From the NCBI RefSeq assembly GCF_000091665.1, contig NC_000909.1:533581-565580 (forward strand): a stretch of 32,000 nucleotides of DNA, in the 5' to 3' direction. The translations under genes were made by a program, and so were the position numbers. The notes beneath the pieces were generated by a model. It saw only the letters and a program-made list of their open reading frames with translations. It searched no databases and was not told the origin of the DNA. Origin of the DNA: Methanocaldococcus jannaschii DSM 2661 (GTDB lineage: Archaea > AGJL01 > Methanococci > Methanococcales > Methanocaldococcaceae). Positions 10,095 to 10,352 of the stretch are shown one piece after another. Numbering within the stretch: the first letter of the stretch is position 1; the number at the start of each line of letters is the position of its first letter.

Positions 10095-10352
10095 GCATAG
10101 GAGGAGACCTCCTATTGCTATGAAACTTTTAGAAAAAGTTAAATGAAAATCAAAGATTTTCATAGCCCGAAGCTAACGCTTCGGTTAAATGAAAACTAAA
10201 AGAGTTTTCATAGCTGGAAAGCGTAGCTTTCCATTTCATTAAAACAGGATGCATTACCTCGCTTCACTCGGCAATGCCTCTTAATTAAGTGGGGCTGAAC
10301 GTAGTGAAGCCCCGCTCTGGGTATCCACACCATAGAGGGGGCTACGCCCCCT
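10095..10352. repeat. array of hairpin modules inserted between the orphan and functional 3' ends of the nth-like gene
   Basis: Successive stem-loops at 10094-10119, 10143-10163, 10167-10184, 10189-10211, 10215-10233, 10250-10276 (imperfect), 10291-10313 and 10330-10358. It shares the AACTTTTAGAAAAAGTTAAA left end and the double-hairpin unit design with 11980-12113. Confidence 0.8.

Follow-up and report, generated by a model that had tools for sequence, protein, structure and literature searches.

The closest described system is the set of palindromic repetitive elements MJRE1-3 of Methanocaldococcus jannaschii (Suyama, Lathe & Bork, FEBS Lett 2005; cited in PMC2229807 and PMC2996958), some of which reportedly lie inside genes and leave them unbroken. 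The elements analysed here, in a 32,000-nt stretch of M. jannaschii DNA (the window; ~31% GC), come from the same organism and are likewise extragenic palindromic repeats; they are probably the repeats of 2005, to which they are likened by size, density and organism and not by sequence. Suyama and colleagues reportedly counted 141 elements of ~100 nt each, 14.3 kb in total, and the ~93-nt two-unit blocks described below, at about one per 12 kb, match these in size and density. Their 2005 study is not known to describe nesting in a 28-nt core, long polar duplications of the target, empty sites across species or pan-archaeal spread. The repeat class is already known; nesting at a fixed point of the core, long polar duplications and a pan-archaeal core may be new. 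The literature that we searched made no mention of core nesting, polar gene-end duplications, a series of empty, core and unit states, or pan-archaeal spread. No text with the core sequence strings was found, concept searches gave no specific match, and the M. jannaschii promoter literature does not mention the genes and repeats of the window.

Other known systems share parts of this design. REP sequences, which are imperfect palindromes of 20-40 nt, and BIMEs are also short, GC-rich extragenic hairpins, often after GTAG, in mosaic arrays with conserved linkers and compensatory stems, and are found in 3' UTRs. However, REP clusters alternate in orientation, whereas the units here lie head to tail on one strand within an array; REPs are also without target duplication and have proteobacterial rather than archaeal hosts, and no RAYT gene is known for the present elements or was found near the cores described below. 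The BOX elements of Streptococcus pneumoniae (boxA-boxB(n)-boxC) similarly hold a variable number of ~45 nt hairpin modules between fixed ends, but their sequence is unrelated, their host is bacterial and no gene-end duplication flanks them. MITEs (Correia/NEMIS, Sulfolobus SM, Rickettsia RPEs) are small, non-autonomous, palindromic and insertion-polymorphic, as are the present elements, and sometimes lie in frame within genes, as does the insertion L049 (L numbers denote other genomes, contigs and loci compared). They differ in having terminal inverted repeats that match an IS and short duplications of fixed length, whereas those seen here are polar and span 14-100 nt, with no evident parent IS. 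Finally, tRNA introns of Thermoproteales are reported to transpose (Fujishima et al. 2010; reviewed in PMC4090602). The likeness is that one short sequence serves as an intron in differing tRNA genes and positions (L008, L052, L059, L021); the window element, in contrast, lies outside tRNA genes and has no bulge-helix-bulge of its own, and its family is found in intergenic and coding DNA of many phyla.

Double-hairpin units

The preliminary description of this DNA had reported four double-hairpin units with conserved linkers at two loci, and all four are present, two per block, with near-perfect hairpins (Table 1). Each unit is 44-49 nt long and follows the plan AAA, AT-rich hairpin (8-10 bp), (A/G)TA(G/A)C, GC-richer hairpin (7-8 bp) and (G/A)TT, the linkers being conserved as claimed. 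The two-unit blocks are palindromic, intergenic and 93-95 nt long. They do not form a CRISPR array, as had also been stated, since the units are contiguous, differ in sequence and have no spacers.

Folded as single-stranded DNA, three of the units give z scores of -6.0 to -7.2, and the fourth, a decayed unit with two mismatches, gives about -3.6 to -3.9. The whole arrays reach z = -8.1 and -6.0, and 0 of 200 shuffles folded as well as any unit or array. Two hairpins per unit are predicted for DNA or RNA and for either strand. The window has 16 perfect hairpins whose stem is 8 bp or longer, compared with ~6 in shuffles, and 9 of them fall within the three element sites considered below. Across 193 kb of Methanocaldococcus DNA there are 10 adjacent pairs of perfect hairpins of at least 7 bp, nearly all inside arrays, against 0-2 in shuffles.

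Pairing was assessed with a hairpin-descriptor search and hand-anchored pair counts in eight related units: the four of the window, two from M. bathoardescens and one each from L153 and L087. Seven distinct AT arms and five distinct GC arms occur among them, yet 128 of the 131 stem positions are Watson-Crick pairs. When the units are compared pairwise, 163 positions have changed on both sides with Watson-Crick pairing kept, a count somewhat inflated by stem length differences between units, and 11 have changed on one side. The earlier observation that stems vary while pairing is preserved is therefore sound, and it extends to further units found elsewhere in the DNA scanned, where pairing is again intact. 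For example, a metagenome scan with a unit-specific 23-mer returned a single contig, L153 (OFBZ01003055.1), which is probably chimeric at the element.

From this covariation the preliminary description had argued for selection on the folded form, as RNA or as single-stranded or cruciform DNA. The DNA option fits better; selection on an RNA fold was not borne out, and the same pattern is expected of any palindromic mobile DNA. G-U pairs are almost absent from the unit stems (0 of 131 on one strand, 2 of 131 on the other), and a folding prediction for naked RNA at 85 C leaves the AT-rich hairpins and the core open, with the GC hairpins alone still folded. No Rfam 15 family matched at the unit loci, where the best weak hits had E = 0.8-2.4, far under the gathering scores, and the units contain no K-turn or C/D-box pattern. 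If the units are mobile DNA, a caution for annotation follows, namely that stem covariation in repeated hairpins is not equivalent to evidence of an RNA gene.

The loops also bear on which strand folds. Opposite the core strand, cGAAg or cGTTAg forms 9 of the 14 unit loops, and GCGAAGC appears on the strand opposite the core in many methanogen core copies. These motifs are very stable DNA mini-hairpin loops; stable DNA hairpin loops of this kind were reportedly described by Hirao in 1994 and Nakano in 2002. On the other strand, GTAG stands one base 5' of the GC hairpin in four of the eight units (ATAG in two, GTAA in one, ATTA in one), in the manner of REPs. The strand evidence conflicts, with stable loop motifs on one strand and the REP-like GTAG on the other.

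Nesting of the units in a core element

Both arrays begin in an identical 17-mer hairpin, AACTTTTAGAAAAAGTT. This was absent from the preliminary description, as were a third, unit-free copy of the hairpin and the long direct repeats of gene ends found at all sites (Table 1). The core is 27-31 nt long and reads N-AAACTTTTAGAAAAAGTTT-N'-ATCAAAA, a perfect and uninterrupted 11-bp AT-rich hairpin followed by ATCAAAA. The unit block of both arrays sits between AAAAAGTT and (T/G)CAT(C/T)AAAA, so that the core is split in two. The same entry point is seen in three different cores, and at site 2 GTT is present at both junctions. In M. bathoardescens, the block of site 3 enters the core at this same internal point, and its units are of the same four hairpin types as those of M. 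jannaschii site 2, with two AT hairpins swapped. Since the same hairpin types occupy non-orthologous sites, the block entered different core copies in the two lineages, its position within the core remaining constant. The two-unit blocks do not make up a conserved structured RNA locus; they are insertion-polymorphic and nested in a mobile core.

Table 1. Element sites, modules and other features of the window
Feature	Position	Strand	Remarks
Site 3, left direct-repeat copy	8613..8657		Aligns with 8697-8742; displaced original end of upstream PAP2-like gene, ribosome-binding site and first 23 nt of tyrA, with tyrA pseudo-start ATG at 8635
Site 3, hairpin of solo core with flanks	8656-8680		Perfect, 11 bp
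Site 3, solo core and tail GAAACTTTTAGAAAAAGTTTCATCAAAA	8658..8685	+	z = -6.1; 48.5 bits
Site 3, third 17-mer hairpin copy	8660-8676		Unit-free; reads ATGAAACTTTTAGAAAAAGTTTCATCAAAA
Site 3, right direct-repeat copy	8697..8742		Joined to working tyrA, start codon 8720
Site 1, left direct-repeat copy	10063..10094		Repeat D7, 88% identity; displaced last 10 codons and stop of endonuclease III-like gene (minus-strand sense), adjoining tyrA stop
Site 1, hpA	10095..10118	+	Hairpin module, GCATAGGAGG AGA CCTCCTATTGC
Site 1, core 5' part	10119..10140	+	TATGAAACTTTTAGAAAAAGTT; parted from 3' part by unit block
Site 1, two-unit block	10141..10235	+	First locus of the preliminary description
Unit 1	10141-10186	+	Double hairpin
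Unit 2	10187-10235	+	Double hairpin
Site 1, core 3' remainder and tail	10236..10245	+	TCATTAAAAC; same join at sites 2 and 3 in other species
Site 1, hpG	10247..10283	+	GGATGC, hairpin, GCCTCTTA; module directly after core tail in L154 and L151
Site 1, hpV	10289..10315	+	GC-rich hairpin module, GTGGGGCT...AGCCCCGC
Site 1, hpW	10329..10359	+	14-bp hairpin module, ACCATAGAGGGGG CTA CGCCCCCTCTATGGT; one arm includes last codon and stop of endonuclease III-like gene (10353-10358)
Site 1, right direct-repeat copy	10354..10385		Working 3' end of endonuclease III-like gene, 10353..11414 (minus strand)
Site 2, left direct-repeat copy	11906..11979		Repeat D1, 74 nt, 84% identity; pseudo-copy of last 71 nt and stop of atpD (V-type ATPase subunit D, minus-strand sense)
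Site 2, core 5' part	11979..11998	+	TGCAACTTTTAGAAAAAGTT
Site 2, two-unit block	11999..12091	+	93 nt; second locus of the preliminary description
Unit 3	11999-12047	+	Double hairpin
Unit 4	12048-12091	+	Double hairpin
Site 2, core 3' remainder and tail	12092..12101	+	GCATCAAAAA
Site 2, right direct-repeat copy	12102..12188		Working atpD 3' end 12115-12188; 12102-12114 probably a copy of old intergenic DNA
GC-rich hairpin	15926-15952		Perfect, 12 bp
Archaeal signal recognition particle RNA	18961-19276	+	Full length; 256.8 bits

A covariance-model search for the core found 13 copies in 256 kb of Methanocaldococcaceae DNA; copy numbers, and the count of polar events given below, are drawn from ~0.3 Mb plus scattered loci. 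All three sites in the window are flanked by direct duplications of the adjoining gene end, measuring 33 nt at site 1, ~75-100 nt at site 2 and ~45 nt at site 3. In each case the gene-end copy beside the ancestral neighbour is dead, whereas on the tail side the gene body continues into the live copy. The left copy at site 3 retains the ancestral left-hand context of the empty sites in M. fervens, L155 and L157, and the left copy at site 1 retains the ancestral TAA and the ancestral neighbouring sequence. Site 1 is enlarged by further hairpin modules. A GGAG...CTCC module resembling hpA precedes the core in L151 and L150. The linkers of hpG (GGATGC and GCCTCTTA) are fixed, and its stem hardly differs in L154 but is another sequence altogether in L151; hpG is found in L160 as it is in L154. 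The atpD product at site 2 has exact matches in M. jannaschii assemblies, and its 90% cluster includes MJ0615 (AAB98610.1).

Empty, core-only and unit-bearing sites in related genomes

For comparison, we took the 20-kb region orthologous to this part of the window from ten further Methanocaldococcus genomes. Among the 11 genomes, M. jannaschii included, the three sites are variously empty, occupied by the core alone or occupied by core and units. Site 2, at the 3' end of atpD, is empty in M. fervens, the M. vulcanius-like genome, M. lauensis, L155, L157, L159 and L160, carries an uninterrupted core alone in FS406-22, M. bathoardescens and strain 16A, and has core and units in M. jannaschii only. 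Site 1, where the endonuclease III-like gene and tyrA converge, is empty in nine genomes (synteny is broken in L151 and L156) and has core and units in M. jannaschii, with no core-only genome. At site 3, the 5' end of tyrA, the site is empty in M. fervens, L155, L157 and 16A, a core stands alone in M. jannaschii and FS406-22, L160 has a truncated core, and M. bathoardescens has the core with a two-unit block. The intergenic gap at an empty site 2 is 14-54 nt, and at an empty site 1 the two convergent stop codons are 1-15 nt apart. The core-only genomes at site 2 also carry the duplicated atpD end.

Recent events are indicated by two insertions: the two copies of the tyrA start at site 3 of FS406-22 are identical at 23/23 positions, and the flanking repeats of another insertion, in L151, at 40/40. 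Precise secondary loss, on the other hand, probably accounts for some of the empty sites; no atpD pair is closer, at 96.2% identity, than that of strain 16A, which is filled, and CP187542, which is empty. The copies of the atpD end, compared also with L152, L154 and L158, yield no simple tree and do not follow species relationships. For example, the dead copy of M. jannaschii is closest to the sequences of L160 and M. bathoardescens, whereas CP187542 and 16A have the sequences nearest to its live copy. Such mixed kinship suggests gene conversion or exchange between species.

The presence and absence of the elements at orthologous sites also bears on a possible role in RNA. Stable stem-loops in 3' UTRs or between cistrons could protect upstream mRNA, punctuate operons or stop transcription, like the REP/BIME elements of E. 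coli, in which case selection on the RNA fold would keep the pairing and mobility would be merely the means of arrival. Sites 1 and 2 do lie directly after the stops of the endonuclease III-like gene and atpD, the minus strand has T5 runs (TTTTTGATG and CTTTTTCT), T runs being the archaeal termination signal, and the whole site 1 insert folds with z = -9.1 relative to shuffles. In addition, the three lone mismatches near these sites, two in units and one in hpG, all turn into G-U pairs when read on the strand that is transcribed as 3' UTR, which weakly favours an RNA constraint. We nevertheless regard such a role as unlikely, and mobility as a mere vehicle for it equally so: orientation to transcription varies, with site 3 in the sense direction upstream of tyrA and sites 1 and 2 antisense to the abutting gene, and close relatives without elements at the same sites have intact genes, in addition to the scarcity of G-U pairs, the predicted unfolding at 85 C and the lack of an Rfam family noted above. 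On the insertions, the nesting, the presence and absence between species and the flanking duplications, our preferred interpretation, which we hold to be fairly probable, is that the units are modules of a nested, non-autonomous, mobile family of palindromic DNA.

If this is true, compact archaeal genomes, with gaps of 2-50 nt between genes, can tolerate mobile DNA, the insert bringing a rebuilt gene end with it. The elements would then be a concrete and datable source of 3' UTR hairpins, upstream regions, in-frame peptide insertions and tRNA introns. tyrA, which now lies behind inserted DNA, would be an example of a gene with a new upstream region.

Polarity of the duplications

Further insertions with duplicated gene ends were found outside the three sites. 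In L001 the core lies between 22-nt repeats of the 3' end of a tRNA-Val gene; in L154 and L160 the core and hpG lie between ~38-nt repeats of a ferredoxin gene end; and in L151 an hpA-like module, the core and hpG lie between the identical repeats, 40 nt long, of a DNA methylase gene end. The Micrarchaeota MAG L022 has three copies of the initial 14 nt of a tRNA gene, and cores separate one copy from the next. The gene is on the tail side in each of these cases. Altogether, the working gene end is on the ATCAAAA side in 8 of 8 events with a duplicated gene end, and the flanking repeats measure 14, ~22, 33, ~38, 40, ~45 and ~75-100 nt.

The core in other archaea

Beyond Methanocaldococcus, 17-mer scans found the full N-AAACTTTTAGAAAAAGTTT-N'-ATCAAAA in at least ~75 loci among the matches listed. 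The carriers are Methanomicrobiales, Methanosarcinales, Methanobrevibacter, ANME-1, Bathyarchaeia, IMG/VR (uncultured viral) contigs and, within DPANN, Woese-, Pace-, Micr- and Aenigmarchaeota. Methanocaldococcus itself accounted for 2 loci among the matches listed in the genome-collection scan, most of the others being chance. Conservation in these copies is confined to the 28 nt of the core, with nothing beyond. Seven inner stem pairs were fixed by the search pattern, leaving only the two outer pairs free to vary, and both covary (CG 12, GC 11, UA 10 and AU 4 for the first; AU 35, GC 4, CG 2 and UA 1 for the second), with a covariation score that was reached by 0 of 500 shuffles. About 14% of the core copies among the matches listed lie within or beside tRNA genes, where ~1% is expected. 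The canonical introns of one tRNA-Gly and one tRNA-Ala are built from the core, and in L059 and L021 it stands at non-canonical tRNA positions. A flanking repeat is detectable in a minority of the copies outside Methanocaldococcus. No Rfam family was linked to the core sequence.

One might suppose that a dimeric protein instead recognises the core and units as duplex DNA, in the way of an operator, iteron, partition site or promoter element, so that their symmetry mirrors the two-fold symmetry of the protein and not a hairpin. The core is indeed a perfect inverted repeat of 8-9 bp about a centre of 3 nt, conserved down to single bases between phyla, and viral and DPANN contigs (L124, L131, L051) carry it in tandem at intervals of 29-35 nt. 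After the tail at site 3 comes TATATATA, ~30 nt upstream of tyrA, and AAAAAGTTTAATCA bears a loose likeness to a BRE and TATA box. However, binding sites bring no target duplications of 14-100 nt and do not occupy tRNA introns, and seven AT arms and five GC arms mean that no single protein site is conserved in the units. The outer core pairs, which run through all four pair types, are a better fit to a stem. We therefore give little credence to duplex binding sites as the explanation, and to protein symmetry as the origin of the palindromes just as little.

A wider reading, which we put forward tentatively and rate below the mobile nature of the units, is that the core is an undescribed pan-archaeal mini mobile element. 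It would spread in a hairpin-dependent way with long, variable and polar duplications of the target, persist at gene ends thanks to the rebuilding of the gene by the duplication, seed tRNA introns and serve as a specific landing pad for hairpin modules such as the double-hairpin units of Methanocaldococcus. In that case the core would be among the smallest known mobile elements, and a 28-mer almost unchanged from Methanocaldococcus to DPANN and viruses would point to some activity on hairpin DNA that is conserved in hosts or viruses.

Two RNA motifs were considered and rejected. The C/D box was set aside as UGAUGA occurs on the wrong strand only and varies with the closing pair, and a bulge-helix-bulge motif as the core helix is perfect and bulge-free and the window is without tRNA.

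Possible routes of movement

The insertions fall into two layers. In the first, the core has been inserted at gene ends, the target being directly duplicated over 14-100 nt each time; in the second, a two-unit block of ~93 nt always enters the core between AAAAAGTT and (T/G)CAT, and hpA, hpG, hpV and hpW lie beside the core. The stems would keep their complementarity because copying requires the element to fold into intrastrand hairpins, most likely in single-stranded DNA. We infer the single-stranded form, the route of copying and the absence of a benefit to the host.

The route that we prefer is template switching where a replication or repair fork has stalled. DNA synthesis would run out of the gene and leave the chromosome in intergenic DNA, and a donor element would be copied from its tail side inwards. 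On stalling at the core hairpin, synthesis would re-enter the chromosome upstream, so that the gene end is copied twice; the gene would be left intact only if the point of departure lay beyond its end. Such switching would fit a boundary that is fixed on the core side but variable on the tail side, repeats of variable length and the polarity. We hold this model loosely, in that the opposite polarity would also be compatible with it and the junction microhomology that it predicts is weak or absent where checked.

The main alternative to template switching is that a dedicated enzyme moves the elements, either one that acts on single-stranded DNA hairpins (such as an HUH/Y1 transposase of the IS200/IS605 or RAYT type) or an integrase. 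The GTAG, or in two further units ATAG, before the GC hairpin would suit it, as GTAG plus a hairpin is the REP layout recognised by RAYT transposases, and so would the opposite strand of the tail, TTTTGAT followed by a hairpin, given that TTGAT is the target or cleavage pentanucleotide of the ISDra2 type. A near-invariant 28-mer across phyla also suggests recognition by a conserved protein. Even so, IS200/IS605 and REP elements make no target duplication, whereas those found here are long and variable, and so many different targets are unlike those of site-specific integrases. The flanking-ORF survey found no transposase, integrase, RAYT gene or IS-like ends recurring near the cores; clustering of these ORFs gave no protein family recurring beside cores, and the one shared family was aRF1, a housekeeping protein. 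It is therefore improbable, in our estimation, that a dedicated enzyme moves the elements, and template switching remains our preferred route.

Three more specific mechanisms were tried and dropped. IS605-type targeting of TTGAT is contradicted by the empty sites, from which TTGAT is absent, so that it belongs to the insert and not to the target. In target-primed reverse transcription the fixed end would be 3', whereas here it is 5', and no reverse transcriptase is known in the M. jannaschii genome. Finally, CRISPR-related or ectopic spacer integration does not fit, the 'spacer' here being constant and the length of the duplication variable.

Other hairpins and repeats

A search of plasmids with the site 1 insert gave no match, and the core itself had only borderline matches in phages and plasmids. 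The Bacillus thuringiensis plasmids L161 and L162 carry AAAGTTTGATCAAAA two to three times in ~130 nt of intergenic DNA, one copy of which has the core-like hairpin CAAACATTTTGAAAAAAGTTTGATCAAAATGC. This cluster of the Bacillus cereus-group plasmids was dropped from consideration, being local and not dispersed in 50 kb of plasmid, and may be chance or an unrelated local motif.

Perfect tandem core arrays were seen in L051 (1-136), L124 (3870-4010) and L131 (4176-4226), with periods of 34 nt, repeated four times, in a Woesearchaeota contig and of 29 nt in an IMG/VR contig. ANME-1 and related contigs (L066, L120) contain back-to-back core pairs. In L087 (5926-6010), three perfect hairpins stand in a row, one GC-rich, one AT-rich (ATGAAATC...GATTTCAT) and one GC-rich with a GCGAAGC tip; there is no core nearby, which indicates that the modules cluster on their own too. 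Contig L153 has an acyltransferase-like ORF and higher GC upstream of the element, and downstream a gene for phosphatidylserine decarboxylase that shares 82% identity with its M. lauensis homologue.

At the site 1 orthologue of L160 (12105-12190) there is an unrelated, coreless hairpin insertion of ~81 nt, CCATAGAAGGA...TCCTTCTAT. It abuts the same endonuclease III-like stop codon, and one of its arms is made of the gene's own last codons, as in hpW. The M. jannaschii metagenome contigs L145, L147 and L148 end at or near site 1, suggesting that short-read assemblies break at this repeat. Elsewhere in the window, the half-core AAAACTTTTTAGAA precedes the GC-rich hairpin listed in Table 1, in a region (15895-15960) that is probably another, decayed element; the intergenic gap there is 311 nt, compared with 124-163 nt in M. 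fervens and M. bathoardescens. In the Rfam 15 covariance scan of the window, the sole match was the signal recognition particle RNA.
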